DNA from: an uncultured virus (IMG/VR IMGVR_UViG_3300031134_000641)
Taxonomy: Duplodnaviria > Heunggongvirae > Uroviricota > Caudoviricetes
DNA length: 48,601 bases
Virus record (IMG/VR): IMGVR_UViG_3300031134_000641
Strand: one strand, 5' to 3'
A program made the position numbers and the translations under genes. Below are positions 1,341 through 40,647 of the stretch, in pieces. Each line of letters opens with the position of its first letter. The stretch's first letter is position 1. Under the pieces are notes generated by a model. That model was not told the origin of the DNA, made no database searches, and saw only the letters and a program-made list of their open reading frames with translations.

Positions 1341-2837
1341 ATGAAGACCACAATCACTAATGTCTGTAAAGCCCAACGCCCTCTGTTCTGTCGTTACCAT
1401 GGCGATGCTAAACGTGCATCCTATGAGAAGCGCCTTCAGACAGCCCTTGTCAACGCGCAAGCTAACGTTGATCGTGCTGCTAAATCTAATGATGCAGAAG
1501 TTTTCTTGGATGCGAAACAGTACCTTGACAATGCGCAGATTGCTTACGCTGCCACCATTGAAGGTGAACAGAAACTCCGTGAAGAAATTGAGGTAAGCTA
1601 CGGGCTAGAACGTGATGTTCTTCAAAAACGCTTGGATGACGCTCTTGCTGAGAGAGACGAATTAGAGCAAGAAGACGACCAGGATGGTATTTACTCTTTC
1701 CCTTCATCTAAACTAGATGAAGCAGTGGCAAAGATTGAGAAGGCCAACCGTAAGTTGACGCGGGCTGGTCTTGAAGGTGAGTTTGGTTACACAACTAGTA
1801 CCTACATTAAAACTGACCCTAAAACTGGTGAACACTACGAGATGACCAGACTTGAACTCAATCGTCCTCCTGTCAAGATAGGCGGATGGGACTTTGTGGC
1901 TTCAGTTGATAAAGCTCCGAACAACGATTTCATCACACGTGTCCTACCTGGACAAGATCTAAACGGTTACCGACCTGATGCACAAGAGTGCGAACATTGT
2001 GGTTCTACCCGCCGCCGTAACACCACATATCTTCTCCGCAGTGAAGACGGTAGTCTACGACAGGTTGGTTCAAACTGTCTAGAGCCGTTCCTTGGTGTAA
2101 AGCCTAAGGGTTTGTGGGCACTAAACTACGACCCCGAAGAAAACGAACCTTTCTACGACAAGGAATCACCAATTCCTAAGAGCGACAAAGTTCTTCCTCT
2201 TGAAGATACAATCGCTATGGCATTAGCTGTGTCAGATGATGGTGCAAGGTATGTTTCTAAAACCAAAGCTTACGAGTACGGCGGGACTTCAACTGCTGAG
2301 AGTGTTATGAACTCATTCTACTCTAGCTCCGTTGACGCCCATGTGGACCATGAGCCTTACAGAGAAAAAGCGAAAGAGATTATCTCTTCAGTTAACTTTG
2401 AAGGTGACAGTGATTACAACACTAACATGAGGACTGTGCTAGGAGGCGAATGGGTTAGCAACAAGCATGTTGGTCTAGCTGTGTCTGCTGTAGGAGCCTA
2501 CCAGCGTCAGAAGTTCTTCAACGAAAAGAAAACTGAACCTAAATCTGTTGGTTTCCTGGGTGAGCCAAAAGACAAAATCAAAGACGTTAAAGTAACTGTC
2601 AAAAGAGTTGACCACTACGAAAATGATTACAGTTACACTGGTGGTATGCAGTCTCGTTTGATTATGGTGACTGAGGATGGCAAAGAAGTCAAATGGCAAG
2701 CGTCAAGCTACCAGGACCTAAAACAGGGGGACAAGCTACTTCTTACTGGAGGTTCTGTGAAAGGCCACGGCACATTCAACGGCAACGACCAGACAATTAT
2801 TACTAGAACGAAATTTGCTCAACTGAAAGAAGAGTAA
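1341..2837 (+). CDS. Hypothetical protein: N-terminal C-x7-C-x2-H tag, coiled coil, Zn-ribbon, probable C-terminal OB-like domain
   Basis: CKAQRPLFCRYHG at aa 9-21; CEHC...VGSNC; beta-rich C-terminus starting GFLGEPKDKIKDVKVTV. The OB call is inference. Confidence 0.6.
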   Translation: MKTTITNVCKAQRPLFCRYHGDAKRASYEKRLQTALVNAQANVDRAAKSNDAEVFLDAKQYLDNAQIAYAATIEGEQKLREEIEVSYGLERDVLQKRLDDALAERDELEQEDDQDGIYSFPSSKLDEAVAKIEKANRKLTRAGLEGEFGYTTSTYIKTDPKTGEHYEMTRLELNRPPVKIGGWDFVASVDKAPNNDFITRVLPGQDLNGYRPDAQECEHCGSTRRRNTTYLLRSEDGSLRQVGSNCLEPFLGVKPKGLWALNYDPEENEPFYDKESPIPKSDKVLPLEDTIAMALAVSDDGARYVSKTKAYEYGGTSTAESVMNSFYSSSVDAHVDHEPYREKAKEIISSVNFEGDSDYNTNMRTVLGGEWVSNKHVGLAVSAVGAYQRQKFFNEKKTEPKSVGFLGEPKDKIKDVKVTVKRVDHYENDYSYTGGMQSRLIMVTEDGKEVKWQASSYQDLKQGDKLLLTGGSVKGHGTFNGNDQTIITRTKFAQLKEE

Positions 2838-2860
2838 ACTTAAACTAGGTGGGATTTCTT

Positions 2861-2889
2861 TTGCAAAGTTTTCTTTATTGTGCTATGAT
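2861..2889 (+). promoter_or_regulatory. SigA-type promoter
   Basis: TTGCAA-N17-TATGAT with TGn extension. Confidence 0.65.
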
Positions 2890-2928
2890 AGAGGAACAGA
2901 AACGATTAGACAAGGATTCATCCCTATA

Positions 2929-4188
2929 ATGACTTCAACTGAACAGAATGAAGAGTTCGTCGGTAAGGCCCCTGAGAAATTTAGCTTGGCTACTGCTAAA
3001 GCTAGTGCTGATATTGTTGTGCAAAGCGATGAGGCAGCTAAGACAATTGCCCCACCGGTTTCAGACAGTCAGGAGCGTATCCTACGCAAGGAAGCTGAAG
3101 CTTACATCAATGAGCTTTCTAAGCTTGACCACAAATCTCCTGAGTTCAGCAAGAAAATTCAGGAAATCTCTAACAAGGCTAACTCTGACATTGCCGCCTC
3201 CACTGACTTCTCCAATAGCGCTAAGAGCATCCTAGACCGTAAGACAACATCTGTTGCCGGAGCTAAGCGTGCTGGCAACGAAGGCCAGAAAGTTGTTTCA
3301 ACTGAGCTAGCTAACCTCCGTAACCTTGTGGAGGATTTCTCTCCTCACGGTAAGCACCTTTCTGGTACACGCAAAATCCTTGGTGTTATCCCTATGGGTA
3401 AGAACATTGAGCGATACGTTAAACGTTTTGACACTGCTGAGGACCAGCTTGAAGCGATCAGCGCTTCGCTATTCCACGGGCGTGATGAGCTTCTGCGTGA
3501 CAATGCTGAGCTTTACACGCAGGAGGAGAAGCTTTGGAATGCGATGGGTAAGCTCAACGAGGCTGCTTTCTACCTTCAGGCTCTTGATGACGCCACAGTT
3601 AAGCGTATGGAAGAGATTAAAGCTTCTGGTGACATGGAAGAGTACAAGGTTATGGATAACGATATCCTCAACCCTATCCGTCAGCGTAATCAGGATGTTA
3701 CAACACAGATGGCTGTGACAGCACAGGCTTACCTGTCAATGGGTCTCATCCGAAACAACAACGTCGAGATTGTCAAGGGTGTAGAGCGCGCACAGAACAC
3801 CACTGTTGTCGCCCTGTCAACTGCTGTTCGTGTTGCCACCTCACTTGCCGGTTCTGAGGATGCTCTGCGACAGCTGGAGGCTACTAAGGCAACAACTGAG
3901 AAGCTTATTCTAGAGAACAGCAAGCGTTTGAAAGACAACGTTGCGCGTACTCACAAGCTTGCCACCGAAACAACTATTGATGTTAATGTGCTTCGCCAGG
4001 CATTCACTGACACGTTCGCAACAATGGACGCGATTGACGTTGCCAAGTCTGAGGCGAACATCAAAATGGATGCAGCTAAGAATGCTCTTATTGAGCAGCT
4101 TGAGCGAACCAAACCTTACCTTGAGCGTTCACGTAACGAGTCACTAGGCTTTGACAACGGCGCAAGTCGCGGTCAGATTTCCTCGTAA
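2929..4188 (+). CDS. Toxic anion resistance protein, TelA/KlaB family
   Basis: All-helical; GRDELLRDNAEL, IRQRNQDVTTQMAV, IRNNNVEIVKGVERA, AFTDTFATMDAID. Start moved from 2878 to ATG 2929, which lies downstream of the promoter. Confidence 0.85.
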   Translation: MTSTEQNEEFVGKAPEKFSLATAKASADIVVQSDEAAKTIAPPVSDSQERILRKEAEAYINELSKLDHKSPEFSKKIQEISNKANSDIAASTDFSNSAKSILDRKTTSVAGAKRAGNEGQKVVSTELANLRNLVEDFSPHGKHLSGTRKILGVIPMGKNIERYVKRFDTAEDQLEAISASLFHGRDELLRDNAELYTQEEKLWNAMGKLNEAAFYLQALDDATVKRMEEIKASGDMEEYKVMDNDILNPIRQRNQDVTTQMAVTAQAYLSMGLIRNNNVEIVKGVERAQNTTVVALSTAVRVATSLAGSEDALRQLEATKATTEKLILENSKRLKDNVARTHKLATETTIDVNVLRQAFTDTFATMDAIDVAKSEANIKMDAAKNALIEQLERTKPYLERSRNESLGFDNGASRGQISS

Positions 4189-5851: not shown

Positions 5852-6793
5852 ATGAATACCAACCATAAATCCACTTTAACTCTTACCCTATGCCGTGGCC
5901 TGCCAGGATCTGGTAAAACAACGTGGGCGGAACAGCAGATGCGCGCCAACCCAGACAAGTATGTACGGGTCAGTCGTGACAGTATCCGTAATGCCTTCTA
6001 CCAGAAGAGTATTCTTTCTCCCTTTGATGAGCAGAAGGTAACAGAAATTCAGATTGATATGATCAGGAAGTTCCTTCTCAGCAAAAAAGATGTTCTTGTA
6101 GATGACACTAATCTCTCTGGTAGGGCCATGAACCGCTTTTACAACTTAGTTCAGGAGTTCGAAGGAAGAGTCCAGATTCGTGTACAGGATTTCTCTGTTG
6201 ACTACAAAAAGGTAATTGAACGTGACCGTCTGCGGGGTGAAAACGGTGGGACTTCTGTTGGCAAAGACGTTATTATGGGCATGGTAAACAAGCGTATGAA
6301 CGGATCATCTGAGCTTCCTACTCTTGATGCCAAATTCTATCAGCCTATTGTAAAGCGTGAGACAATTGAGCAGGATGCCGCTTTGCCGTCCGCCTGGCTG
6401 GTTGATATTGACGGTACTTTAAGTGATTTAAACGGACGCAATCCGTATGACTACGATAAGGTAGACAATGATGCTCCCATTGAGCACATTATTGAACTAG
6501 TAAGTACATTAAAAGCTGCGGGTAACATTATTGTTCTTATGACTGGACGTGATGCTGTAGCTCGCGTTTTAACTGAAGAGTGGCTAAAAGTATGGGAAGT
6601 CTCTTACGACCACTTATACATGCGAGCAGCGAATGACACACGTAAAGACAGTGTTGTGAAGAAAGAACTCTATAATGCACATGTCAAAGGGACATACAAC
6701 GTAAAGGGTGTCCTTGATGACCGTAGCAGTGTAGTGCAGATGTGGAGAAGCGAAGGCTTATTCTGCGCTCAGGTAGCTGACGGCTTATTTTAA
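5852..6793 (+). CDS. Polynucleotide 5'-kinase/3'-phosphatase (T4 PseT-like), copy 1
   Basis: P-loop GLPGSGKT, SRDSIR, VDDTNL; HAD motifs DIDGT, TGR, DDR. Confidence 0.92.
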   Translation: MNTNHKSTLTLTLCRGLPGSGKTTWAEQQMRANPDKYVRVSRDSIRNAFYQKSILSPFDEQKVTEIQIDMIRKFLLSKKDVLVDDTNLSGRAMNRFYNLVQEFEGRVQIRVQDFSVDYKKVIERDRLRGENGGTSVGKDVIMGMVNKRMNGSSELPTLDAKFYQPIVKRETIEQDAALPSAWLVDIDGTLSDLNGRNPYDYDKVDNDAPIEHIIELVSTLKAAGNIIVLMTGRDAVARVLTEEWLKVWEVSYDHLYMRAANDTRKDSVVKKELYNAHVKGTYNVKGVLDDRSSVVQMWRSEGLFCAQVADGLF

Positions 6794-8947: not shown

Positions 8948-11900
8948 TTGAAGAAAATTGCAGGAGCGGGGATTCTCTCCCTTGTTGTCTCTGCGTTACT
9001 GGTTGCAGCCCCGCTGACTTCAGCATCTGCCGCACCCAGCGACCGTGATAACATCTATGGTCTTACCAACAATCTAAGGCAGAGCCAGGGCCTAGACACA
9101 CTAGACCGAAACTCAAGTCTTGACAGTGTAGCTCAGAACTGGGCAACATACATGGGAGAGACTGGCGACTACCGCCACCAGACACAGAGCGAAATGGCTC
9201 AGCGTATTCCTACAGGTTGGATGCGATGGGGCGAGAACATTGCTTATGTTTCTTCAAGCAGCACTTCAACTGACCTGTTCAACAACTGGGTCAACTCACC
9301 TGGTCACTACGTAAACATCGTTGGTGACTTCACAGATATTGGTGTAGGTTACTACACTAACACCATTGATGGTCTTTCCTACGGAGTCCAGATCTTCGCT
9401 GACTATCCGCCTGGGCCTCCTACAGGTCAGAATGCGCCCTCAGTGTCAGCCGTTGACGCTCGCAACGTAAACGTCTCATGGAAAGCTCCTGGTTCTGACG
9501 GTGGTTCAACCGTAACAGGATATGACGTTTACCTTACAAGACAGTATGACAACGCAACTGTTGCTAGCTCATCCGTTGACGCTAACACTCTAAGCACAGC
9601 TTTTGGGAATCTAACCCCGGGTACTGCATACTACGCATTTGTGTCTGCTAAAAACGCAATTGGAAACTCTGGTTTCTCCCCAAGCTCTGCTGTCGTAGTG
9701 ACACCTGCTGTAGCTCCCTCTGCTCCTACCACACCTGTTGTCACAGCAGGTAATCAGAAGCTGACAGTGTCATGGGATAGCCCCACTGATAATGGTGGCG
9801 CTGCTGTAACAGGTTATACTGTTAACCTTACACCTGCGGGTGGAGCAGCAGTAGCACTTGAAGTTGGTGCTGTTAACACAGTTGACTATGCTGACTTCCA
9901 GCCTGGTGTTTCTTACACCGCTACAGTAGTTGCCAAGAACTCAGCTGGTGCATCACCTGCATCCGCTGCATCTGCTTCTGTCATCTCACCATTCAAAGCT
10001 CCTGGCGCTCCTGCTGCTCCCACAGCACAGGTCACAGCAACAGCTGGACAAGTTGGTGTGACCTGGGCCGCTCCAGTTAACACTGGAGGAACAAAGATAA
10101 CAGGTTACACTGTAACAATCACCAACGTAAACAATGTTGCTGACACAAAAACATTGTCAACTGCTAACCTTTCTGCTGGGTTCTCAGGGCTAACCCCTGG
10201 TGCAACCTACACTGCTACTGTGTCCGCTAAAAACTCTGTGGGCAACTCACCTGCATCAGCAGCGTCAAACACTGTTTATGTTCTTCCTGTAGCACCTGAT
10301 GCTCCCACATCAATCGTTGCTGAACTAAGTGATGAGAAGCAGATTACTGTAACATGGGAGGCACCTGCTTACGCTGGTGGTGGAACAATTTCATCTTATG
10401 TTGTCACTTTGACTTCACAGAAAGCTGGAGTTGAGAAGAAAGTTGTCACAGTCAACGGCGACAGCAGAAGTGCTGTAGTTGAAGGTCTAGCATCTGACAC
10501 AACATACACTGCTACAGTAACAGCTGTAAACGAGACTGGTACTAGTGTCTCATCAACGGCTTCTAACAAGGTAGTCATTCCTAAATCACCTGTCGCACCC
10601 GACGCTGTCGCTCCTGCTCTAATCTCAGGTGTAACAGCAGAAGGCTTCACCTTCTCATGGGTAGAGCCTGCTTCAAATGGTGGTTCAGCAATCACAAACT
10701 ACAACGTAACAGTTGTTGCTGCTGATGGAAACAAAGTTCTTGATAACGATTACGCTGAGCCTACTTCAGTTACCTTAGATTCACTGGACTATGCAACAGG
10801 CTATACTGTTTCAATTGTTGCTGAAAACCGTATTGGTAACTCCAAGGGTTCAGAGGTAGTTGCGTACACTCTGGCTAAGGCTCCTGGTGAGGCTTACCGT
10901 CTTAACGGTCAGGCCGATGCAAAGGGTGGTCTTACTCTAAACTGGAGTGCCCCTACAGACACTGGTGGATATGTCATCAGCAACTATGCTGTCAACCTGT
11001 ACCTGGCTGAAGATCGTAGTTTGGTCAAGACAGTCAACTCTCAGGAATCTGAAGTTACTATCAACGGTCTAACTCCTGGAACTGATTACTTCTACACAGT
11101 AGTTTCATCTAACAAGGATGCTACAGGTGCGGAAAGCTCATCCTCTGGTGTTATCACCACAAGAGATGTACCTGCTGCTCCTACAAATGTTGTAACATCA
11201 GTATCTTCTGAGAACGCTTCAACTGTAACAATTACATGGGATGACGTTGCCGACAGTGACGGTTTCATTGTGACACTTACCGGCGATGACGGTAAAACTT
11301 ACACTGCTACAAATGAAAGCACAACCACCGGCTTTGCTCAGCTTACCCCTGGCGTTAGCTACACTGCTACAGTTCAGGCCGTCAATGCGATTGGAACTTC
11401 AGCTGTTTCAGCTGAGTCTAACGTAACACGAGTTGCACCTGTTGCTCCTGATGCTGTAACAAACGTTAAAACAGTTGTTGCAGGCACCAAAGCTACTGTC
11501 ACCTGGAACGCACCAGCGTTTAATGGCGGCGGCACCGACCTTCGTTACTTTGTATCTGTAGCGAACCAGGCAAATAACCAGGATGTTCGCACTGGAACAG
11601 TTACTGACACAACCTTTGTAGCAGAGAACTTGACACCTGGTGCAGTTTACGATGTTCTTGTTGTCTCTGCGAACAGTGAAGGTTTCGCTCAGCTAGGCGG
11701 AAAGGCTGTAGCAAGCATTGCTGCGGTTGCTCCTGATGCTGTGAGAGATGCAACTGCTTCCCTTGACGCTGACCGAGTAAACTCTGCTGTTGTCAGATGG
11801 AATGCTCCTGAGTTTGATGGTGGTTCTAAGGTTTACGAGTACCGCGTTACTCTTACTCCTACTACATCCAGAGGAACAGAGCAGGTCGTAGCCGTTAAGG

Positions 11901-12957: not shown

Positions 12958-13015
12958 AATTCCCATGAGTAAGGCCCCAACTAGAAAATTAGTTGGGGCC
13001 TTACTCATGGGAATT
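12958..13015. terminator. 26-bp-arm hairpin followed by a T-tract
   Basis: aattcccatgagtaaggccccaacta-gaaaat-tagttggggccttactcatgggaatt. Confidence 0.85.
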
Positions 13016-13044
13016 TTTATTTTTATATGATGTTGTAGTTCTGT

Positions 13045-13380
13045 ATGACCGATCAAAAACATTTCCCAGTCCAATTAACTGATGCAGCTGCACAGAAAGC
13101 TCTTTCCCTAGTTGGTTCACGCGATGATTTAAAACTCCGTATTAGTGTGCAGCCAGGAGGTTGCTCAGGATTGATTTATCAGCTTTACTTTGACGAGCGT
13201 GAGCTTGAAGGCGACTTAGTGAAAGACTTCGGTGGTATAGAAGCAATAGTAGATAAGATGAGCGCACCATATCTTGATGGTTCCACCATCAACTTTGAGG
13301 ACACAATTGAGAAGCAAGGTTTTCAGATAGACAATCCCAATGCAGCTGGCTCCTGTGCTTGCGGTGACAGCTTCCATTGA
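13045..13380 (+). CDS. iscA: A-type Fe-S cluster carrier (HesB/IscA/ErpA family)
   Basis: GGCSG and NPNA-x-GSCACGDSFH. Confidence 0.93.
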   Translation: MTDQKHFPVQLTDAAAQKALSLVGSRDDLKLRISVQPGGCSGLIYQLYFDERELEGDLVKDFGGIEAIVDKMSAPYLDGSTINFEDTIEKQGFQIDNPNAAGSCACGDSFH

Positions 13381-13381
13381 T

Positions 13382-13391
13382 GTTAGATATC
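13382..13391 (+). promoter_or_regulatory. GTTAGnnAT motif
   Basis: GTTAGATATC; 9-nt spacer from GTTAG to ATG 13396. Confidence 0.7.
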
Positions 13392-13395
13392 ACCT

Positions 13396-14124
13396 ATGAC
13401 AAGTCATACACCTATTGCCTTAGGTCATGGTAAATTTTGCTATTCTGGACCCAACTGTCGGATTCACGGCAAGAAAAACTCTTTTGATAGCTTAACAGAT
13501 GTTTTTAATAGGGTAGATGCGGAGTTTCCCGCAGTTACAGAAAAATCTGAAACCACTACTGTACAATTTGAGAAAGAAGCGAAAGCCTTTTTTAAAACAC
13601 TTTCGCCTAACGAGAAATATGCAATTGCTAAGTACTCAGACAAGAACGGTTCTATCCGGGTAAACCGAACCTTAGATCAGAATGCAAAAATACATGATCC
13701 TGAGGTTATCCGGATGGTTACGGACCTGGATTCGTCCTTCCAGAAGCAGCAGGATGGCGCTCAGCGAACTTTATACCGTGGGGTGGAGAACTTACCGCTC
13801 TCATGGGCTGAGGACCTTAGAAAGGGTTCTACAGTTACTAGCCTAAGTTACATGTCAACTAGCTTGAACCCTCACAAAGCTTTTGAGTTTACATCAAGGG
13901 AAAAGCCTATTCTTTTCAAAATAGACTCCGGCAGAGGCTTGCCTATTTTAGTTCACGAAAATGAGTTTGAGATACTTCTCCCTCGCAAACAAAGCTACCA
14001 GGTAGTTAGCATTGAAGAAAATATTGCTGTTAATGCCTACAGCCCCAACCATGACGTGGGCATAAATACAAGCGGCTTGAAAACCAGACATGGTGTCATG
14101 TTGGTTACGCTTAAAGCCTTATAA
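13396..14124 (+). CDS. ADP-ribosyltransferase (R-S-E, VIP2/C3-like) with N-terminal Cys/His tag, ART1
   Basis: LYRG, YMSTS, ENEFEILLPR; tag CYSGPNCRIHG. Confidence 0.88.
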   Translation: MTSHTPIALGHGKFCYSGPNCRIHGKKNSFDSLTDVFNRVDAEFPAVTEKSETTTVQFEKEAKAFFKTLSPNEKYAIAKYSDKNGSIRVNRTLDQNAKIHDPEVIRMVTDLDSSFQKQQDGAQRTLYRGVENLPLSWAEDLRKGSTVTSLSYMSTSLNPHKAFEFTSREKPILFKIDSGRGLPILVHENEFEILLPRKQSYQVVSIEENIAVNAYSPNHDVGINTSGLKTRHGVMLVTLKAL

Positions 14125-14127
14125 AAG

Positions 14128-14169
14128 AGGTGTGGCCCTGAACTAAGTTTCTAGTTCAGGGCCACACCT
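14128..14169. terminator. Bidirectional terminator hairpin
   Basis: aggtgtggccctgaacta-agtttc-tagttcagggccacacct between convergent genes. Confidence 0.85.
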
Positions 14170-14181
14170 TTTTGTTAATCA

Positions 14182-14928: not shown

Positions 14929-15150
14929 TAATTTCTCCTTATACTGACAGCCATTATAACATCTATATCGGTGTGAATACTGTGTGTTGTCTGAAAGCGA
15001 GCAGGCAAAATGTGTGGTATAGTTGTTTCATACGTTTTGCGCATTTGTTACATTTGTGTTACAGTGACCGATAACGATATTAACCGGGCAATTACCCACA
15101 AGGTGATTGTCTGTATTTTTGTGTCCATAAGAAGAAAAGAAAGAAACACC

Positions 15151-15835: not shown

Positions 15836-15845
15836 GTTAGTTATA
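15836..15845 (+). promoter_or_regulatory. GTTAGnnAT motif
   Basis: GTTAGTTATA; 9-nt spacer to ATG 15850. Confidence 0.7.
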
Positions 15846-15849: not shown

Positions 15850-16737
15850 ATGAAACGCTTTCCACGAATAGCTGTAGGTACAAACACAGCAGGTAACACA
15901 ATGTACTGCTATGCAGGTCCAGAATGTCGTCTACATGGCTCTCAGGCGGCCTCTGCGGCCTTTGACAAGCGAATACAAGTGCTTCAGTCGGATCTCATTA
16001 AAACTCCTTTAGAACGGCTCCTACCTGACCGCACACTTGTACGCAGAGGTCTGAACGGACCAGATAGCACTGACAAAGTTATGGCCCTTACAAAAGAGGG
16101 CCATGACTGGCGTAGCAAGCTTACAGAAGATGAAATAGAAGAAATAGAAAACTACCGCAACACCGGTTTTGACTATATCAACGAATACCTGAACTTTCCA
16201 TCTACAAAACAAGGCTTGTCCAACGAAGGTATAGACAGTCGCATCTCTGAGATTGACTCAGCACTAGCAAAAGCGACTCCACCAGTAGAGCCACGCTTAC
16301 TGTATCGCTCTTTTAAGGTACCCGGCCTGGGAAAGAAAGTCAAGGATGCTAAAGCCGTAGCGAAATACATTGACGAAAACTTCACACCAGGAACAAAATT
16401 AAAATGGAATGCATTTCTTTCTACTAGCCTAGACTCCGACTTGATGGTTTATCACACATCACGTCGGGAAAACCTTGTCATCTTTGAAATCATCTCTGCA
16501 AGAGGTGCGATTGTTCACACCGAAAATAGTCGTCCCGGCTGGTCAGCCAAGGATGAAGAAAAAGAAGTTCTTATCCCACGTGGGAGCACAATGAGAGTAG
16601 CAAATGTGCTCAAAAATGTTAGCTATGAGACAACACACGCTGAAGGGGTTACCTCACCTGAAAATCCTTTCGCCGCCTATATGAAACCTAAGCCCAGAAG
16701 AAGATTCACTGTTGTCCAGCTAGTTGATGAGAGTTAA
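15850..16737 (+). CDS. ADP-ribosyltransferase (R-S-E type) with N-terminal Cys/His tag, ART2
   Basis: INEYL, LYRS, FLSTSL, EEKEVLIPRG; tag CYAGPECRLHG. Confidence 0.85.
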   Translation: MKRFPRIAVGTNTAGNTMYCYAGPECRLHGSQAASAAFDKRIQVLQSDLIKTPLERLLPDRTLVRRGLNGPDSTDKVMALTKEGHDWRSKLTEDEIEEIENYRNTGFDYINEYLNFPSTKQGLSNEGIDSRISEIDSALAKATPPVEPRLLYRSFKVPGLGKKVKDAKAVAKYIDENFTPGTKLKWNAFLSTSLDSDLMVYHTSRRENLVIFEIISARGAIVHTENSRPGWSAKDEEKEVLIPRGSTMRVANVLKNVSYETTHAEGVTSPENPFAAYMKPKPRRRFTVVQLVDES

Positions 16738-26488: not shown

Positions 26489-26490
26489 CA

Positions 26491-27661: not shown

Positions 27662-27673
27662 GGTTCAAGCACT

Positions 27674-27683
27674 GTTAGAAATA
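27674..27683 (+). promoter_or_regulatory. GTTAGnnAT motif
   Basis: GTTAGAAATA; 9-nt spacer to ATG 27688. Confidence 0.7.
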
Positions 27684-27687
27684 AAGC

Positions 27688-28458
27688 ATGTCCAGAAATC
27701 GTTGCGAAGCTAAAGACCCGGCTAACTGCAAGTTCCACAGGCCGAAACTATTTCCTTTGCCTGCACCACCTTCCGCTGAAGAGCACTTCAACGAATCAAA
27801 AAAGTTTGAATTTGTTGTAAACGCGAACCAGAAGGAGGCGTTAGAGGGTTACCTAGACAACGACTATATGGATATGACACCTGTGCTATATGGCGCTAGC
27901 GACTATAAGAAGGACAAGTTTCTTAAACAAGCAGACTTAATACAGGAAGCTATTGAGACCTACGAGGCTGTCTCTGACAAGAAACCGAAAACAGTTTACA
28001 GGGCAACACGGCTTAAGGCTGGTCATAGTTTTAACAGCCCTGAAGAGATGAAAGACTTCGTAGAAAAGAACTTTAAACCAGGTTCTGTTATCACTACAGC
28101 TGGTTTCACATCAACAACAGTCAGACCTGAAGTTTTGTTTGACTTCCTCCCAGACGGCCACAATGATTACGTTATCAACAACCCCAAAAAAGAAATGTCA
28201 TCTAAACGCTACCATGAACTTATGGGTAGCGACGAGAGCCTAAACAACCTAGTCTATGAGATAAGCACTCCCTCTGGCGTGGCTGTATCATCTTTTGGTC
28301 ACAGCCACGCTACTAGAGAACAAGAGTACCTACTTGGTAGAAACAAGCGTTTCGTCATCAAAGAAGTATTACCCATCTCTAGACTAGATAATCCCGCAGA
28401 GCGCCCTTTCCGTAAGCACGCTCATGCTACCATCATTAAACTGGAAGAAATTGTTTAG
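27688..28458 (+). CDS. ADP-ribosyltransferase (R-S-E type) with N-terminal Cys/His tag, ART3
   Basis: VYRA, GFTSTT, REQEYLLGR; tag CEAKDPANCKFH. Confidence 0.8.
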   Translation: MSRNRCEAKDPANCKFHRPKLFPLPAPPSAEEHFNESKKFEFVVNANQKEALEGYLDNDYMDMTPVLYGASDYKKDKFLKQADLIQEAIETYEAVSDKKPKTVYRATRLKAGHSFNSPEEMKDFVEKNFKPGSVITTAGFTSTTVRPEVLFDFLPDGHNDYVINNPKKEMSSKRYHELMGSDESLNNLVYEISTPSGVAVSSFGHSHATREQEYLLGRNKRFVIKEVLPISRLDNPAERPFRKHAHATIIKLEEIV

Positions 28459-28466
28459 TACTGATT

Positions 28467-28476
28467 GTTAGACATA
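28467..28476 (+). promoter_or_regulatory. GTTAGnnAT motif
   Basis: GTTAGACATA; 9-nt spacer to ATG 28481. Confidence 0.7.
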
Positions 28477-28480
28477 AACT

Positions 28481-29455
28481 ATGAATGGAATACTACAACC
28501 AGACGGAAAACGCTGCTACACCGGACCAGAATGCAAACTGCATGGTGCGCACAATCAAAAGGTACTATCTGGTAAGAAAAAGCCTTCATACCTAGATGAA
28601 ACGCCAACAGCTGATAGTGTGTTCACTATGGAACCTAAAAAAGTAGACTTTGATAAAACATCCCTTCTTCGCGCTAGGCACCTTATTCGTCAATTGTCCA
28701 TGAAAGATATGGACTCAAGCTTGCTAGCTAACACAATTCTGACTGATGTGGCAAAGATGAAGCACGTTGACTACGAAAAGGTTTCATCAGCCATTGAAGT
28801 AGCTTCCTACCTGCACCGTAACGATACTAGGGCTAACCGTAAAGGTTTGCCACGTACACCATATATTGAGCATCCTCTTCGTAACACTTTACGAATTATG
28901 CGATATGAGTGCACTGACCAGAATGTTATCGTAGCTTCAATCTTGCATGACACTGTTGAAGACCACCCACATGAGATAGCTGCCGAATTTGCTGAGCAGC
29001 CAGTTGAAGATGAAGCAGAAGCTCGTGAAACTGCCTTAAACTTTATCTCAGAAACCTACGGAGATAACGTAGCACACATTGTTTACAAGGTGTCCAACCC
29101 AATCCTTCCTGAAGGCCTATCTAAGGAAGAGAAAAGGGAGAAGTACATTGAACATGTTGACTCTGTAATCGGTGATGGTTCAGTTGCTCTAGTGAAATTC
29201 AGTGACTTCGTTGATAACGCTGTTGGTTTGTACCACAACCTAGTTGTAGACGAAAACAATCCTAAAGTAAACAACAAGGGAATGGTTTCACACCTTTCCA
29301 AGAAATATCTGCCTCTTATTCCAATCTGGCGTGAGCGTTTAGAACGAGAAAGAACAAACCGTACTATCCCAGTCACGAACAAGGGACTAGAAGAAATGTT
29401 CCGTCATTTGGAGCATGGAGAACGAGAACTTACAAAGCTTTCCCAACTCGCATAA
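28481..29455 (+). CDS. HD-domain hydrolase, RelA/SpoT-hydrolase/MESH1-like, with N-terminal Cys/His tag
   Basis: PYIEHP, ASILHDTVED, VKFSDFVDN; tag CYTGPECKLHG. Confidence 0.82.
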   Translation: MNGILQPDGKRCYTGPECKLHGAHNQKVLSGKKKPSYLDETPTADSVFTMEPKKVDFDKTSLLRARHLIRQLSMKDMDSSLLANTILTDVAKMKHVDYEKVSSAIEVASYLHRNDTRANRKGLPRTPYIEHPLRNTLRIMRYECTDQNVIVASILHDTVEDHPHEIAAEFAEQPVEDEAEARETALNFISETYGDNVAHIVYKVSNPILPEGLSKEEKREKYIEHVDSVIGDGSVALVKFSDFVDNAVGLYHNLVVDENNPKVNNKGMVSHLSKKYLPLIPIWRERLERERTNRTIPVTNKGLEEMFRHLEHGERELTKLSQLA

Positions 29456-29484
29456 AAATAGTTGGAATATTTTAGCTTAATTAG

Positions 29485-29513
29485 TTGCTTTACCGATAAT
29501 AGTAGTGTATGAT
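29485..29513 (+). promoter_or_regulatory. SigA-type promoter of the tRNA
   Basis: TTGCTT-N17-TATGAT; CCGATA in the spacer at 29493. Confidence 0.7.
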
Positions 29514-29539
29514 AGTTCTTGTAACTAAAAATACACTAT

Positions 29540-29626
29540 GGCATGGTGGCAGAGTCCGGCCGAATGCGCTTGCTTCGAAAGCTTGTAGGGGTCTTCCCCT
29601 CGGAGGTTCGAATCCTTCCCATGCCG
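29540..29626 (+). tRNA. tRNA-Ser(CGA)
   Basis: Acceptor GGCATGG/CCATGCC, discriminator G, long variable arm AGGGG-tctt-CCCCT, T-loop TTCGAAT, anticodon CGA at 29576-29578. Two U-U mismatches in the anticodon stem; CCA not encoded. Confidence 0.85.
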
Positions 29627-29687
29627 CAACCAAAATGTAACAAACTAATGTCTAATCTATTGAAAATGAAAGAGTGGTGAAAAAGTA

Positions 29688-30218
29688 ATGCAGTCTACAC
29701 TTGTACTCAACGCGTCCTATGAGCCGTTGTCTATTGTGTCTGGCCGTCGCGGGGTGAAGATGATCCTAAACGGGCGCGCTTCTTCACTTGATGACTCTGA
29801 AGTAGTTTTCAACTCTGAAGACATTTCCATACCGGTACCCTACGTTGTACTTTTGAACCGTTACGTCCGAAAGGACGCCTTCACGAAGAAGCCTCGCTTC
29901 TCCAGACGAGGTGTTCTTGTCCGTGACGGGTTCGCATGTACCTATTGTGGCAACTACGCTGACACAATTGACCACGTTATCCCTCGTATGGACGGTGGAG
30001 AATCCACTTACGAAAACTGTGTTGCAGCTTGTGGACCATGTAACCGTAAGAAGGGTCACAAGACTCTTAAGGAAATGGGTTGGAGCATAAACTTCAAGCC
30101 AACCGCTCCATCCTTGTTCACAACCATGCTTGGCAAAGCGCGTTCCAACGAACGTCAGCTTGAAGCATGGGGCAGGTACATATCCATGTTCCAGCCGGAA
30201 CTCGCTAAAAGCAACTAA
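29688..30218 (+). CDS. HNH endonuclease
   Basis: LVLNASYEPL, RDGFACTYCG, TIDHVIP, NCVAACGPCN. Confidence 0.92.
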   Translation: MQSTLVLNASYEPLSIVSGRRGVKMILNGRASSLDDSEVVFNSEDISIPVPYVVLLNRYVRKDAFTKKPRFSRRGVLVRDGFACTYCGNYADTIDHVIPRMDGGESTYENCVAACGPCNRKKGHKTLKEMGWSINFKPTAPSLFTTMLGKARSNERQLEAWGRYISMFQPELAKSN

Positions 30219-32060: not shown

Positions 32061-33485
32061 ATGTCCAACTCATATTTAGCTCAAGATGTACTCGCTGAAC
32101 AGGCTGTTCTCAGTAACCTGTTCAATGAACCTACAGTAGTTGACTTACTCTCCGAAATCTTGGTACCATCTGAGTTCTTTGAGCCAAAGAATGAGCTTAT
32201 ATTTCAGGCCATCCTTAAACTGCGTCAAGAAGGTAAATCTTTTGACCCTGTAAGCTTGATGACAGAAATGTCCAGAGACGACACACTAGCCGCTGCGGGT
32301 GGCCCGCTGTACATCTATGAGATTGTTTCACCTAACAACATTGCATCATACGGTAACGACGTTATTGGACACGCTACCGCAGTTAAAGAGAACGCTCGCC
32401 GCAGAGTCCTCACAGATGCCGCAGAGGCAATTCTCCAGGCAGCTAGATTAGGTTCAGGCTTATCAGCCGAAGAAGCCACCATCTTAGCTGAAAAAACAAT
32501 CTACGATATCACCAACGAAGAAGCAATCTCAAACGATGTTTACAAAGTTGCTGACCTGTATGCTCCAGTTACAGAGGAAGTACGACGAGCTAAAGACCGA
32601 CCTGAAGGTGTAATGGCAGGTATCCCCACTGGATTCCCTGACTTAGACAAGAAAACAAACGGGTTCAAACCAGGTCAGCTTATCTTCATCGCAGCAAGGC
32701 CCGGTATCGGTAAGTCAACTCTAGCGGTAGACTTCTGTAGAGCAGCTGCGTTCTTAGCTGAAAAAACTGTTCTCTTCTTCTCACTGGAGATGAGCAAAGA
32801 AGAAATCACCGAACGTATCATCTCTGCGGAAGCACGAGTCGCCTTGCAGGACCTGCGTTCAGGTAACGTTACCAAAGAAGACTGGATGAACATTGATGAA
32901 GTTGAAAACAAAATCAAAACAGGAACCTTCCTTGTAGACCCTTCCCCTAACGTTTCACTGTCTAAGATTCGTTCCCTAAGTGTCCGCCAGCAGATGAAGC
33001 CTGAAGGCTTAGACATGATCGTTATTGACTACCTTCAGCTTATGGAAGTACCCAAAGGTTCATCAAAAGGTGCTTCCCGCCAGGAGCAGGTCAGTGAGTT
33101 GTCTCGTGGTCTTAAGCTTTTAGCTAAAGAGCTTCAAATCCCAGTTATCGTTCTATCTCAGCTTAACCGTTCCAGTGAAACCCGAGTTGACCGTGTCCCC
33201 CAGGTGTCCGACCTCCGTGAGTCCGGTTCACTAGAGCAGGACGCTGACATTGTTTTCCTAATTCACCGCCCTGAAGCTGGTGACGAGAACAACCGACCCG
33301 GAGAAACAGATTTAATCATCGGTAAGCACCGTTCCGGCCCCACAGGCAAGATCCCTCTAACCTCCATGCTTGAATACTCCAAGTTCGTACAAGGACAGGG
33401 TATCTTTGAACGCGAAGAAGAGCGTGTTGGTGATGGAACTGGTACCGGCGACTACACAGCAACAGCTGATGAAACTCCATGGTAA
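32061..33485 (+). CDS. dnaB: Replicative DNA helicase
   Basis: AEQAVL, GIPTGFPDLD, AARPGIGKS, FSLEM, IDYLQLM, LSQLNR, LRESGSLEQDAD. Confidence 0.97.
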   Translation: MSNSYLAQDVLAEQAVLSNLFNEPTVVDLLSEILVPSEFFEPKNELIFQAILKLRQEGKSFDPVSLMTEMSRDDTLAAAGGPLYIYEIVSPNNIASYGNDVIGHATAVKENARRRVLTDAAEAILQAARLGSGLSAEEATILAEKTIYDITNEEAISNDVYKVADLYAPVTEEVRRAKDRPEGVMAGIPTGFPDLDKKTNGFKPGQLIFIAARPGIGKSTLAVDFCRAAAFLAEKTVLFFSLEMSKEEITERIISAEARVALQDLRSGNVTKEDWMNIDEVENKIKTGTFLVDPSPNVSLSKIRSLSVRQQMKPEGLDMIVIDYLQLMEVPKGSSKGASRQEQVSELSRGLKLLAKELQIPVIVLSQLNRSSETRVDRVPQVSDLRESGSLEQDADIVFLIHRPEAGDENNRPGETDLIIGKHRSGPTGKIPLTSMLEYSKFVQGQGIFEREEERVGDGTGTGDYTATADETPW

Positions 33486-34786: not shown

Positions 34787-34830
34787 AACAGTTGAGGCCA
34801 CCCACAAAAAAGTGGGTGGCCTCAACTGTT
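34787..34830. terminator. 19-bp-arm hairpin
   Basis: aacagttgaggccacccac-aaaaaa-gtgggtggcctcaactgtt. Confidence 0.75.
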
Positions 34831-34837
34831 AGGAATA
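34828..34837 (+). promoter_or_regulatory. GTTAGnnAT motif
   Basis: GTTAGGAATA; 9-nt spacer to ATG 34842. Confidence 0.7.
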
Positions 34838-34841
34838 CAGT

Positions 34842-35918
34842 ATGTCAAACCAAGAACAAGAACTAAGAGTTTTCCGTGGGTTACCAGGATCAGGAAAATC
34901 AACTGAAGCCGAGAAGCTAGTACAAAGCGACCCCGACAGGTGGGTGCGCGTAAACCGCGATGATATCCGCTTTGAGCTATACAACAAATATGTTATCCTC
35001 AATTCCAAAGGTGAGATGGATAAAAACGCTGAGAACCATGTCACCGAAGTAGAAAAGCGTCGTATGAATGATGCTTTCAAAGCTGGCAAATCAGTCGTCA
35101 GTGACAACACAAACTTAGGCATCAAAACCGTTAAAAAGCACATTGCCTTAGCGCAATCCCACGGAGTCAAAGTTACACACCAGGACTTCCCAGTGCCTCT
35201 AGAAGAAGTGCAAAGACGTAACGCTGCTAGGTCAAGAGTAGTAGAGCCATGGGTTATCAACCGTATGCACAAACAGAGCATGGGACCCAACGGAGAATTC
35301 CACCTGTTCCCAGGAAGTTACCCTCTAAGGCCTTTTGTCAAGCCCGCAAGTAAAGAGCATGCGGTGGTGTACGATATGGACGGCACAACCACCGATATAT
35401 CAGGTATCAGACATTTTGTTCGCGGTAAATATAGGAACTTCGACGCCTTCCACCGTTCTTCATTGTTCTGCCCACCTAATCAAGATGTGCTGGATATGAT
35501 GCATGATACAGCTGCTGCTGGACTCACCAATATTGTGGTGACTGCCCGAAATCGTGAGTATGAGGATGTTACAGTAAAATGGCTTGACGACCACAACGCT
35601 CCATTCTCCAATATTTACATGCGTAAAGATGGTGACCAGCGTAAAGATAACATTGTTAAAGCGGAAATTCTTGAGGATATTTTAGTTGATTACGATGTTG
35701 TGCACGCAGTAGACGACCGCCCTGAGGTAATTGATGTTTGGCACAGTGCTGGTATCCAGACTACCCTAGTGCCAGGGCTTGACTACACTGACGAAGAAAT
35801 TGCTGCCGGTAAGCCTATCTCCATAGTTAACCCTCTGCGCGCAGGTAGATGCTTGCGCTGTGGCCGCCCTATCTCCGGAGGTCGAGCCTTAGGCCCGACT
35901 TGTGAGAAAATAGGTTAA
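34842..35918 (+). CDS. Polynucleotide kinase/phosphatase (PseT-like), copy 2, with C-terminal Cys-rich finger
   Basis: GLPGSGKS, NRDDIR, SDNTNL, DMDGT, DDRP; tail CLRCGRP...GPTC. Confidence 0.92.
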   Translation: MSNQEQELRVFRGLPGSGKSTEAEKLVQSDPDRWVRVNRDDIRFELYNKYVILNSKGEMDKNAENHVTEVEKRRMNDAFKAGKSVVSDNTNLGIKTVKKHIALAQSHGVKVTHQDFPVPLEEVQRRNAARSRVVEPWVINRMHKQSMGPNGEFHLFPGSYPLRPFVKPASKEHAVVYDMDGTTTDISGIRHFVRGKYRNFDAFHRSSLFCPPNQDVLDMMHDTAAAGLTNIVVTARNREYEDVTVKWLDDHNAPFSNIYMRKDGDQRKDNIVKAEILEDILVDYDVVHAVDDRPEVIDVWHSAGIQTTLVPGLDYTDEEIAAGKPISIVNPLRAGRCLRCGRPISGGRALGPTCEKIG

Positions 35919-37621: not shown

Positions 37622-37623
37622 TC

Positions 37624-37678: not shown

Positions 37679-38440
37679 TTATGAGTTCATAAGTTTTGAC
37701 AACATTGATTGGAAGTTTGCATTCTCCATGATGAATGTTCTGTTGTGAACTTGGCCGCATGCGCAGGACATGTCTGCTTTGATTCCTACATAATCGTCGC
37801 TGTTGTATGTGTTGTAAAGTTGCCAACTGTAATTTTCTTCGTAGTTTTTGATGATAGCTGGCTTACAATCTTCTTTGATGTGCCTTCGGGCAGAATAGTC
37901 TGAGTTTCCTCTGGAGTCTCCCCATGCACTACCGTTTAAGTCGTAGGCGTCTCCTTCTTCTACGAGTAGGTTTGCTACAGCAAGCTTGAATCCTTCTAAG
38001 GGTTTTTGTGCAGCTTTTTCTAACGCGATTTCTTTTTCAACATTGCTTTTCATGTCTGCTAGCAGGTCTTCACGCAGCTGAGTTATCTTGTTGACATATT
38101 TTCGTGCGTTGGTGGTTGGCTTCATGGTTGCTTTGAGCTTAGCAATGTCACGTTCTTGGTTTTTGGTCCAGTCCGTAAAGAATGTGTATGACTGCAAAGC
38201 AATTTCTTGGTCTGAAATATCTTGTGCAGCTTTCTGTGCTTTCTTAAGGGCACCAGCGGTCACGCTAGGGTCTTTAGCATCAAATTTTACGAAAGTTTCT
38301 TTTAAATCTTTTCGTTGGTTTTCTAGCTTCTCTAGATATGCCCAAATGTCCTCTTGGACACGTGAGTCTGCGCTACCTGTTCTCACAGGGTGCTTGCGGC
38401 AGTTGATGTAGTTTTTACTACAGTTACCATATGCGGTCAT
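37679..38440 (-). CDS. Hypothetical protein with N-terminal Cys/His tag, coiled coil and C-terminal Cys/His residues
   Basis: Tag CSKNYINCRKH; later HIKEDC...CACG; AGGAG SD. Confidence 0.75.
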   Translation of the reverse strand: MTAYGNCSKNYINCRKHPVRTGSADSRVQEDIWAYLEKLENQRKDLKETFVKFDAKDPSVTAGALKKAQKAAQDISDQEIALQSYTFFTDWTKNQERDIAKLKATMKPTTNARKYVNKITQLREDLLADMKSNVEKEIALEKAAQKPLEGFKLAVANLLVEEGDAYDLNGSAWGDSRGNSDYSARRHIKEDCKPAIIKNYEENYSWQLYNTYNSDDYVGIKADMSCACGQVHNRTFIMENANFQSMLSKLMNS

Positions 38441-38458: not shown

Positions 38459-38468
38459 TATAGCTAAC
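38459..38468 (-). promoter_or_regulatory. GTTAGnnAT motif
   Basis: Minus strand reads GTTAGCTATA, then a short leader with AGGAG, then ATG 38440. Confidence 0.65.
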
Positions 38469-39282: not shown

Positions 39283-39310
39283 GAGTGTCTTTGGGTAAGA
39301 TTATGGTATC

Positions 39311-39320
39311 GTTAGTTATC
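39311..39320 (+). promoter_or_regulatory. GTTAGnnAT motif
   Basis: GTTAGTTATC, then a leader with AAGGA, then ATG 39349. Confidence 0.6.
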
Positions 39321-39348
39321 TAGAGTAACCTGATTTAAGGAAAAACAA

Positions 39349-40647
39349 ATGCCAGCTACTAAATGCCGTGCTAAAGGTGGAGTTGCTACCTGCAAGGATC
39401 CCAACTGCCCAGAGAAACGATACCTCGCGGGCCTACAAGGCTCTGGGGCGGCTTTTGGCATCGCCCCTGACAGGGACGCATTCCAGCGAGATTGGTTCCC
39501 TGATGAGGCTCCTGAGGCCGCTGAGGGCATAGCCTGCATTGACAGTATCGCTTCGCTTGAAGAGTTCAACAAAGCTGTGGAAGAAAACCGTATCAGCGGT
39601 CAGAAGCACCCTACTCTTCCTCTTCGTATTTACAAGTACACACCTCAGACAACGTTCAAAAAAGATTGGGATGATGTAACACTTGCCTCCCGTGGTTTGA
39701 TTGTTAACCAGGAGACAGGTGAGATTGTAGCGCGACCTTTTGGTAAGTTCTTTAACTACAATGAGCAGAGTGTCCCTGTGGAACTTATGCGCGGACCTAT
39801 TAGCGTAACTGAGAAACTTGACGGTTCTCTTGGTATCAGCTATGAGGGTGAGAACGGTCTTGAGATTACAACAGCTGGTGGCTTCACTGCTCCTCAGGCT
39901 GCTCACGCTACTAAAGTATACCGTGAGCGTTATGAAGGAAACTGGTCTCCTGACCCTGACAAGACATACATGTGGGAAATCATTTACCCTGAAAACCGTA
40001 TCGTAGTTGACTACGGCGACGAGGATGACATTCACCTTATTGGTGCTGTAGACAAAAGAACAGGTGTAAGCGTTCCTGTTTCTCAGGTGACTGAGTGGAA
40101 GTGGAAGAGAGCCGAAGAGCACACCAACTTGAAAGATATCAACTCTGTAGTTGGCTCTGACGAGCGAAGTAACCATGAAGGTTTCATTGTCCACTACACT
40201 GATACTGACACTCGTGTTAAATTCAAACATGCTGAGTACTTAAACCATCACCGTTATGCTACAGGTATCAACTCCCGTCGTATTTGGGAGATGATGCAGA
40301 GTGGTGAAGATATGACTGAATGGCGCAAGCGTGCACCTGAAGAGTTTGAAGATTACATCAACAACTCAACAAAGAAAATTCAGGATAGTTACGACTCACG
40401 CTACAAAGCTATCCACAAAAGCTATGCCGAGTTCGCTAAAACTGTTCCAGCGGGTGCATCTCAGAAGGAGTTTGCTATCGCCGTGCAGTCAAGAGTGCCA
40501 AGCAAAGACCGAGGTTACTTCTTCAAGATTCACAACTACGGTAAACTGTCTGATGACCCTAAATCTGTTAAAAGCATTTGGGATGAAATCAAGCCAGAAC
40601 ATGAGAATTCATTGTGGGCAGCTGGTAACGGCGTAGAGAAAGAATAA
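39349..40647 (+). CDS. RNA ligase 1 (T4 Rnl1/RnlA family) with Cys-rich N-terminal extension
   Basis: SRGLI, ARPFGKFFN, motif I EKLDGSL, WEII, EGFIV, RVKFK; N-terminus CRAKGGVATCKDPNCP. Confidence 0.92.
   Translation: MPATKCRAKGGVATCKDPNCPEKRYLAGLQGSGAAFGIAPDRDAFQRDWFPDEAPEAAEGIACIDSIASLEEFNKAVEENRISGQKHPTLPLRIYKYTPQTTFKKDWDDVTLASRGLIVNQETGEIVARPFGKFFNYNEQSVPVELMRGPISVTEKLDGSLGISYEGENGLEITTAGGFTAPQAAHATKVYRERYEGNWSPDPDKTYMWEIIYPENRIVVDYGDEDDIHLIGAVDKRTGVSVPVSQVTEWKWKRAEEHTNLKDINSVVGSDERSNHEGFIVHYTDTDTRVKFKHAEYLNHHRYATGINSRRIWEMMQSGEDMTEWRKRAPEEFEDYINNSTKKIQDSYDSRYKAIHKSYAEFAKTVPAGASQKEFAIAVQSRVPSKDRGYFFKIHNYGKLSDDPKSVKSIWDEIKPEHENSLWAAGNGVEKE

Follow-up and report, generated by a model that had tools for sequence, protein, structure and literature searches.

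The stretch of DNA analysed here, called the window, is 48,601 nucleotides (nt) long and is filed as an uncultured virus (IMG/VR IMGVR_UViG_3300031134_000641). Seven of its genes encode proteins that begin with a short cysteine/histidine tag, and all seven stand behind the promoter-like element GTTAGnnAT. Analysis points to a handle at the N-terminus that is modular and probably metal-stapled, and that marks phage-like enzymes of a regulon predicted to be leaderless. One common partner would recognize the handle, and we consider this reading somewhat probable. The tag is apparently undescribed so far. Judged from gene content and relatives, the window is a piece of a cellular chromosome and not of a phage, and its source appears to be an uncultured bacterium with a small genome (0.6–1.0 Mb).

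The tagged genes, three of which encode ADP-ribosyltransferases (ARTs), are the following (lengths in amino acids, aa):

1341..2837, plus strand: tagged 498-aa protein; tag CKAQRPLFCRYHG, knuckle C9..C17-R-Y-H20 at nt 1365-1400
13396..14124, plus strand: ART1, 242 aa, PF03496 body; subtype A tag CYSGPNCRIHG, C15..C21-R-I-H24 at nt 13438-13467
15850..16737, plus strand: ART2, 295 aa, PF03496 body; subtype A tag CYAGPECRLHG, C20..C26-R-L-H29 at nt 15907-15936
27688..28458, plus strand: ART3, 256 aa, PF03496 body; subtype B tag CEAKDPANCKFH, C6-EAKDPAN-C14-K-F-H17 at nt 27703-27738
28481..29455, plus strand: HD hydrolase, 324 aa; subtype A tag CYTGPECKLHG, C12..C18-K-L-H21 at nt 28514-28543
37679..38440, minus strand: tagged 253-aa protein of no known family, 38440(-); tag CSKNYINCRKH, knuckle C7-x6-C14-R-K-H17 at nt 38390-38422
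39349..40647, plus strand: T4 Rnl1-type RNA ligase, 432 aa; tag CRAKGGVATCKDPNC, His-less knuckle C6-x8-C15-x4-C20 at nt 39364-39408

A sequence-only reading of the window had quoted these seven tags, and they are present as given, six with the full motif and the RNA ligase with the His-less variant. The set of open reading frames (ORFs) was chosen greedily and without overlap and holds 60 ORFs of at least 45 aa, some small ones of which are surely spurious. The motif C-x5-8-C-[RK]-x-H was found in 6 of the 60, where it begins between residues 6 and 20 each time; the 14,989 residues of the set contain no further copy. When each protein was shuffled 2000 times, a mean of 0.006 proteins (maximum 1) had the motif in the first 40 aa, and its frequency at N-termini is above chance. 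ART1, ART2 and the HD hydrolase share the subtype CYxGPxC[RK]xHG and ART3 is without it, which agrees with the same reading.

The module of about 25 residues is made up of a short beta-hairpin, turning at N-G or D-G, and a loop after it, which together hold two cysteines and one histidine, and a floppy or helical linker of 40-115 residues lies between tag and body. In the 1341 protein this linker is helical to about residue 115 and leads to a phrog_2319-type body without a Pfam family; the RelA/SpoT-type body of the HD hydrolase starts at about residue 100, and the body of the RNA ligase at about residue 64-114. The three subtype-A tags of the window differ at most synonymous sites, and an explanation at the nucleotide level, such as a regulatory RNA or a recently copied cassette, was rejected on this ground. 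A relation of 38440(-) to the largest tagged family ('family X') was tried and rejected (hhalign probability 0.75%). A word-based search with ART2 residues 1-45 returned only ART2 itself, whose database gene call begins at M18 (278 aa; P0001) and misses the true start.

The sequence-only reading had also placed GTTAGnnAT upstream of all seven tagged genes. The element is there in every case, in 38440(-) and 39349 27-37 nt upstream with a Shine-Dalgarno leader in between, and it precedes two untagged genes as well, one of them for a polynucleotide kinase-phosphatase (PNKP):

1326..1334, plus strand: GTTAGATAT, 6 nt 5' of the gene 1341 ATG; terminator-like hairpin 1248-1291 shortly upstream
13382..13390, plus strand: GTTAGATAT, 5 nt 5' of the ART1 ATG
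15836..15844, plus strand: GTTAGTTAT, 5 nt 5' of the ART2 ATG; directly after terminator-like hairpin 15787-15834
27674..27682, plus strand: GTTAGAAAT, 5 nt 5' of the ART3 ATG
28467..28475, plus strand: GTTAGACAT, 5 nt 5' of the HD hydrolase ATG
38460..38468, minus strand: GTTAGCTAT, 19 nt 5' of the 38440(-) ATG (starts at -28), with an AAGGAG Shine-Dalgarno between
39311..39319, plus strand: GTTAGTTAT, 29 nt 5' of the RNA ligase ATG (starts at -38), with an AAGGA Shine-Dalgarno between
34828..35918, plus strand: GTTAGGAAT-N5-ATG and untagged T4-type PNKP, gene from 34842; just after hairpin 34787-34830
42859..43406, plus strand: GTTAGTCAT-N5-ATG and untagged 177-aa protein of no known family, gene from 42873

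Counted on both strands, GTTAGNNAT has 13 occurrences, where shuffles give 6.28 ± 2.23 (maximum 11). Nine of these sites closely precede the start of an ORF, namely at the seven tagged and two untagged genes. The arrangement GTTAGNNAT-N5-ATG occurs six times against 0.12 expected, while gene 1341 has N6. Across the 60 ORFs, tag and promoter are strongly associated (table 7/0/2/51, Fisher p = 9e-8), and the association recurs at loci of relatives; the enrichment covers one window and a handful of loci of about 3 kb. PNKP 34842 and gene 42873 have the same promoter and the same spacing with no tag.

In five of the seven tagged genes, the element stands 5-6 nt before the ATG and no Shine-Dalgarno is present. 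No conserved -35 region was found in 15 aligned sites, and at three genes a terminator-like hairpin lies upstream, its end 1 to about 35 nt away from the element. Given this short distance, the lack of a -35 region and the abutting terminators, the GTTAGnnAT genes should, from their sequence, give leaderless mRNAs and form one regulon. A membrane protein gene at 17118-17510(-) has the near-variant CTTAGGAAT (17510-17525) 4 nt before its ATG and may be a degenerate tenth member of the promoter class. Another motif, CCGATA, after which the sequence-only reading names a gene class, recurs upstream of 4962, 6836, 8789(-) and 33521, and we take it to resemble the -10 box of sigma-28/WhiG-type promoters.

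The tag is not confined to the window. A DNA pattern for CYxGPxC[RK]xHG gave 13 matches in metagenome contigs, 10 of which are ORF N-termini; the matches at L004, L014 and L016 are internal and were set aside as chance. The ten loci yield the consensus [RK]-[IV]-x-V-G-N-G-K-[YF]-C-Y-x-G-P-x-C-x-x-H-G. At seven distinct tagged genes of relatives, the exact GTTAGnnAT was found at four, a variant with one mismatch at two and none at one. A profile of 11 tags (A1), searched against 1.84 billion representatives, gave 64 matches at E <= 1e-3, and four of them were dropped as Cys-rich repeat proteins with 6-20 matched stretches. In the other 60 clusters the tag is single-copy and N-terminal (residues 1-30), on proteins of no more than 440 aa. 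In three of them (P0006, P0050 and P0064), the database gene call has a spurious upstream extension that makes the start over-long, and a Met stands just before the tag. The tag-bearing clusters that were looked up are metagenome-derived only and named 'hypothetical protein', and the module is lineage-restricted.

Known families do not cover it. A Pfam search with ten N-termini of 50 residues (E <= 10) returned a single chance-level row, the only one of a zinc-finger family (E = 0.1), and all NCBIfam, PADLOC and PHROG matches begin after tag and linker, leaving the tag uncovered. Full-text searches of the literature found no description of the tag, which is not proof of its being unpublished, and in PMC5512222 a term search gave 0 occurrences of 'cysteine', 'zinc ribbon' and 'Zn-ribbon'. 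Members of the largest tagged family (24 clusters, about 290 aa) form tandem pairs beside a purA-like gene in two genomes (L006:1453-3031, L008:3-1574).

Once the tag is removed, clustering of the 60 matches with the seven window proteins gives 19 groups of bodies, or 16 when any local match is accepted. The family of 24 members ends CGRK...C-x-H-C...H-x-G-H-G, families of 14 and 5 members have in common a helical linker with a Y-D-A-T-x-E-G turn, and ART bodies number eight (5 of the 60 clusters and three in the window), besides many singletons. Pfam assigned PF03496 to five of the 60 clusters and PGDYG plus DUF6900 to one; four stayed below cut-off and 50 had no row. A search of the Protein Atlas with P0009 gave nothing above 0.78.

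That the tag is portable and independent of its cargo, as suggested earlier, is borne out by these bodies. Besides ART and HD, no fewer than four further unrelated bodies carry subtype A. Orthologous bodies may also carry different subtypes: P0046 has a 1341-type body and a subtype A tag, while 1341 itself is of type B, the form also present on ART3. Furthermore, homologues without the extension exist for the HD hydrolase, the RNA ligase and the 1341 body. The last resembles viral hypothetical proteins (Protein Atlas), and its phage homologues align only from residue 116-131 on. For the best 120 of 433 HD relatives and the best 120 of 3600 Rnl relatives, tag states were assigned by regular expressions and are approximate; one HD and two Rnl sequences were too short. 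The counts are:

No tag: HD 75, Rnl 28
A (CYxGPxCxxH): HD 4, Rnl 1
B (C-[RQ]-A-K-x-P-x-x-C-x-x-H-G): HD 23, Rnl 20
C (P-Y-R-H-x-D-G-S-N-C-W-T-K-N-C): HD 1, Rnl 62
D (C-x8-C-x4-C of the window ligase): HD 0, Rnl 2
E (Cys-less hairpin): HD 13, Rnl 2
Other two-Cys: HD 3, Rnl 3

The untagged HD relatives include a protein of Agromyces humi, the only named one among the best 120. On unrooted FastTree trees of the bodies, built with the tag excluded, at least 10 tag-state changes are needed for HD (41 with shuffled labels) and at least 21 for Rnl (50 with shuffled labels). Since the changes are fewer than with shuffled labels, swapping is only occasional. The type-A HD clade of the window has one origin, and its nearest bodies, at 60% identity, are tagless. 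As read from these trees, the tag is mostly inherited with its cargo, yet it has been repeatedly gained, lost or exchanged.

The cargo enzymes have intact catalytic motifs and phage-like bodies. ART1-3 match PF03496 (ADPrib_exo_Tox) with 55.3, 70.7 and 33.0 bits against a cut-off of 23.4 and keep the R / S-T-S / E-x-E motifs (YR, STS or STT, ExE; in ART1 YRG / STS / ExE). The RNA ligase matches PF09511 with 52.6 bits against 28.3, has KLDG at residue 156 and matches phrog_562 at 5.6e-63, and the HD protein retains the H...HD motif. PHROG matches of the cargo are an Alt-like RNA polymerase ART, T4 RnlA, an HD phosphohydrolase and phrog_2319 (unknown function), and a relative matches a dNMP kinase. 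The genes that follow ART1 and ART2 are convergent, so no immunity gene lies downstream of them; ART3 is followed by the separately promoted HD gene.

The untagged PNKP 34842 matches T4 polynucleotide kinase in PHROG, and a paralogous T4-type PNKP is encoded at 5852-6793 (the first occupies 34842-35918). With the Rnl1-type ligase added to the two PNKPs, this cellular genome has all parts of a phage-style set for RNA repair; in this set only the ligase is tagged, and of the PNKPs only 34842 has the GTTAG promoter.

This cargo bears on another explanation, in which the tag is a nucleic-acid-binding knuckle, a small metal-stapled hairpin. It would anchor the RNA- and NAD-handling enzymes of a stress or RNA-repair regulon on RNA, DNA or the ribosome, all within the producing cell. 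The nucleotide- and RNA-centred cargo (Rnl1, the RelA/SpoT-type HD protein, the ARTs and the untagged Pnk in the regulon) would fit such a role, as would the T4-type repair pair that Rnl1 and Pnk complete, the Y or W after the first Cys in subtypes A and C, and the K or R flanking the second Cys. Nucleic-acid knuckles are commonly internal or in tandem, whereas all 60 tags are strictly N-terminal and single-copy. Only three ligands are present and no zinc-finger model matches; moreover, 50 of the 60 cargo clusters have no Pfam row and no nucleic-acid link, and many genes would be spent on the tag for a genome of about 0.9 Mb. We therefore regard the knuckle as unlikely, and a handle read by a common partner remains the preferred explanation.

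The handle is expected to hold a metal. The conserved ligands are two Cys and one His only, and the invariant columns are M, C, Y, G, P, C, H and G in the A1 alignment and C, C, H and A in the A3 alignment. In type A the ligands are arranged C..C-x2-H, and in type C the His lies on the first strand and is followed by C-x4-C. This suggests a real three-ligand site that was rebuilt in two ways, and the tag probably binds metal. In the AlphaFold model of ART1 (8-row alignment), the core has a predicted local distance difference test (pLDDT) score of 84-92 and residues 1-30 one of 40-47; a hairpin is barely indicated (strands 7-10 and 13-15), and the tag is not packed on the body. In the model of the 1341-type N-terminus (23-row alignment), the knuckle has pLDDT 45-47 and the linker helices 22-49, 52-70, 73-85 and 88-119 have pLDDT 77-98. 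Foldseek found no match to this model at E <= 0.001, only non-specific helical ones, all at E > 0.8. Co-folding of two tag copies with Zn scored 0.02 (mark 0.42), which counts neither in favour of metal binding nor against it.

Side by side with the Cys/His forms stand Cys-less extensions, so that the metal, if any, is dispensable for at least some forms. The extension is P-E-x-R-x-D-K-N-G-K-x-V-V-R-H-V-K on HD relatives (P0247, P0249, P0266 and others) and H-P-R-[DN]-x-K-G-K-F on Rnl relatives (P0112, P0156, P0163). A hairpin of the form P-R...[ND]-G-K-hydrophobic is common to the two and to subtype A. Given this likeness, a wider hairpin motif of N-termini may underlie the Cys/His tags, which would be its metal-stapled elaborations.

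The same models and variants bear on a regulatory role, in which the tag is a redox- or metal-sensing cap or a degron that keeps potentially self-toxic enzymes inactive or short-lived until a stress or phage signal. A Cys2His site with an open coordination position would be chemically reactive, the ARTs have no adjacent immunity genes, a dedicated promoter is common to the set, and in the models the tag is flexible and makes no contact with the body. With a linker of 40-115 residues and no docking, it is, on the other hand, badly placed to block an active site; Cys-less variants exist, and harmless-looking cargo such as the RNA ligase is tagged too. We hold a switch of this kind to be distinctly improbable.

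The record is filed as viral, and the sequence-only reading had assumed a phage in which the tag loads late-made host-takeover enzymes into the virion. The gene content speaks for a cell. Pfam, run on 41 window proteins other than the tagged ones, identified DnaK (81-1241), RecA (44668-45726, minus strand), DnaB (32061-33485), thioredoxin reductase TrxB, a DinG-like helicase, an Fe-S assembly protein, NrtR and PncA. It also found membrane proteins, namely a major facilitator superfamily (MFS) transporter, a fatty-acid desaturase, M50B and CAAX proteases, BaxI and YgjV. Transfer-messenger RNA (tmRNA) and tRNA-Ser were found by ARAGORN and Rfam, and Rfam gave nothing else in the window. Among the Pfam-scanned proteins there is no capsid, portal, terminase, tail or other virion gene.

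The window contains no ribosomal protein or tRNA synthetase gene either, so its cellular nature rests on the housekeeping gene set and on the relatives, since cluster members and homologues of window proteins lie on contigs of 0.6-1.0 Mb. A megablast of 13000-30000 against 50,697 phage records gave no match, and a degenerate DNA pattern for CYxGPxC[RK]xHG gave 0 matches in 2.9 million viral contigs (IMG/VR). In IMG/VR there are likewise no close relatives of RecA (identity <=48%) and none of Rnl.

The phage setting is thus not upheld, and with it virion loading loses its basis. Packaging would have found some echo in the cargo, which resembles T4-type early enzymes (Alt-like ART, RnlA, Pnk), in the lack of ribosomal protein and tRNA synthetase genes in the window, and in a promoter without a -35 region, a feature shared by T4 late promoters. 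Against it stand the cellular genes, the lack of any virion gene or phage DNA match, the long contigs of the relatives and the lack of a conserved L-x-E cleavage motif after the tag. A capsid-targeting label is, in our judgement, extremely improbable.

As for the lineage, the best PDB match of RecA is a RecA (469 bits), and the best PDB entries for RecA and TrxB are presumably mycobacterial. A RecA scan of genome contigs gave only matches of 49-53%, in three metagenome-assembled genomes of Patescibacteria, and the best identity against 401 Patescibacteria genomes was 64%. In these 401 genomes the tag profile gave two rows of at most 22.4 bits, one with an internal stop and one inside a 1092-aa frame, and Rnl matched one genome at 33% identity. 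The best profile match in 201 genomes of one Patescibacteria class was partial (19.8 bits), and the five genomes with the best RecA gave nothing. The lineage was thus not seen among the 602 sampled Patescibacteria genomes (201 + 401). Its relatives have replicons of 0.6-1.0 Mb with a GC content of 37-47% (loci L005, L006, L008, L010, L013). Besides two samples that may be the source, four sequencing runs from three studies, labelled straw or plant metagenome, contain 61-74% of the words of 13000-17000.

Taken together, a metal-stapled, three-ligand N-terminal hairpin would serve as a handle on enzymes, and one common partner would read it and thereby recognise the whole co-expressed set. The partner may be a delivery or export route, which would pass an arsenal of phage-like host-takeover enzymes to another cell. 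This arsenal would include the Alt-like ARTs, Rnl1 and the HD hydrolase, and in relatives also a dNMP-kinase-like protein and many bodies of unknown function. The set would be switched on through a dedicated leaderless promoter class, GTTAGnnAT. Within the handle reading, delivery or export of the takeover kit, taken alone, is a tentative proposal. It is favoured by the strictly N-terminal tag, the flexible tether, the investment of 7 of about 50-60 genes, the missing immunity genes and the nature of the cargo. Delivery would also fit a bacterium of 0.6-1.0 Mb that is probably host-dependent. The full picture, in which a reduced-genome bacterium of plant metagenomes delivers a phage-style takeover kit through a new hairpin signal and the GTTAGnnAT leaderless promoter class, is rather doubtful as a whole.

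Several observations weigh against the handle or its use in delivery. No partner, secretion machinery or sigma factor was identified in the window and the relatives' loci, and host-dependence is guessed from the contig sizes alone. The RNA ligase and the HD hydrolase are atypical as exported toxins and could act in the cytoplasm of the producer, and PNKP is untagged despite the common promoter. The metal is argued solely from the conserved Cys and His; AlphaFold builds no confident metal site in the knuckle, and Cys-less hairpins occur on HD and Rnl relatives. The tag state mostly tracks the body trees, and some of the variety among subtypes may have come about by divergence in place. Moreover, the denominator of 60 ORFs includes doubtful small ones, and the sequencing runs listed as containing the window stretch include no RNA run.

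A HerA-like ATPase of 695 aa (40727-42814) is encoded directly after the tagged ligase and ahead of the untagged gene 42873; it carries DUF87, matches PADLOC HerA with 42 bits and VirB4 only at the Walker-A level, and has no PDB sequence match. Two candidate surface or adhesion proteins are a secreted-looking protein of 1334 aa with a CAP domain and ten fibronectin-III repeats (8948-12952) and a protein with an aggregation-promoting-factor C-terminal domain (22550-23284). In the region 19614-20850 (about 1.2 kb) all ORFs are short (57-93 aa) and on the minus strand; the region has no Rfam match and could be a decayed gene or an RNA.

If the tag is a recognition handle, the cargo list of a targeting or delivery system in an uncultured small-genome lineage is defined at once, with no fewer than 16 protein families on it already, the majority of them without a known function. 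Tag and promoter together give a simple sequence rule for finding more cargo. The minimal three-ligand Cys2His hairpin of about 25 residues is suited to structural and metal-binding work, and the genes form a clean natural set, predicted to be leaderless, whose promoter is well defined and has no -35 region. Annotation is affected as well, since gene callers misplace the starts of such genes (ART2 and three over-long tag matches).

Among known systems, the closest in plan are the trafficking or adaptor domains at the N-termini of polymorphic toxins and effectors (for example LXG, MIX, PAAR-linked; Zhang et al., 2012; PMC3482391). In both, one N-terminal module is found on many unrelated C-terminal bodies, ARTs among them, with several copies per genome. 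In contrast to these toxins, the tag is about 25 residues plus a linker, the proteins have at most 440 aa and no repeats, the window shows neither immunity genes nor cassettes next to them, and no known secretion system is linked. In addition, no trafficking-domain model matches, and the cargo includes RNA-repair-type enzymes. For the type VII substrates WXG100 and LXG, no Pfam match was found in 7 + 60 + 7 tagged proteins; the linker turn is Y-D-A-T-x-E-G, where a helical hairpin of the WXG100 kind would have W-x-G.

In T4, internal proteins carry a capsid-targeting sequence and the ART Alt is packaged. The likeness lies in a short N-terminal address on unrelated proteins and in the Alt-like ART bodies. 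In the present case, however, the genome is cellular, the window has no virion genes, no L-x-E protease site is present, and the Cys/His hairpin has no counterpart in the T4 targeting sequence. The CCHC zinc knuckle of the retroviral nucleocapsid type (C-x2-C-x4-H-x4-C) is likewise a very small module built on Cys and His, in which an aromatic residue follows the first Cys and basic residues lie nearby. The tag differs from it by its three conserved ligands, by its spacing (C-x4-8-C-x2-H, or His on the preceding strand), and by being strictly N-terminal and single-copy without a Pfam zinc-finger match.

For the promoter, the nearest likeness is in Actinobacteria, where leaderless mRNAs arise from promoters without a -35 region and with a TANNNT -10 box. 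Here, too, a -10-like element ends 5-6 nt before the start codon and no -35 region is conserved. Unlike the actinobacterial promoters, the element is a fixed nonamer, GTTAG-nn-AT(A), rather than TANNNT, and it marks a specific set of genes (9 of about 50-60) instead of the bulk.

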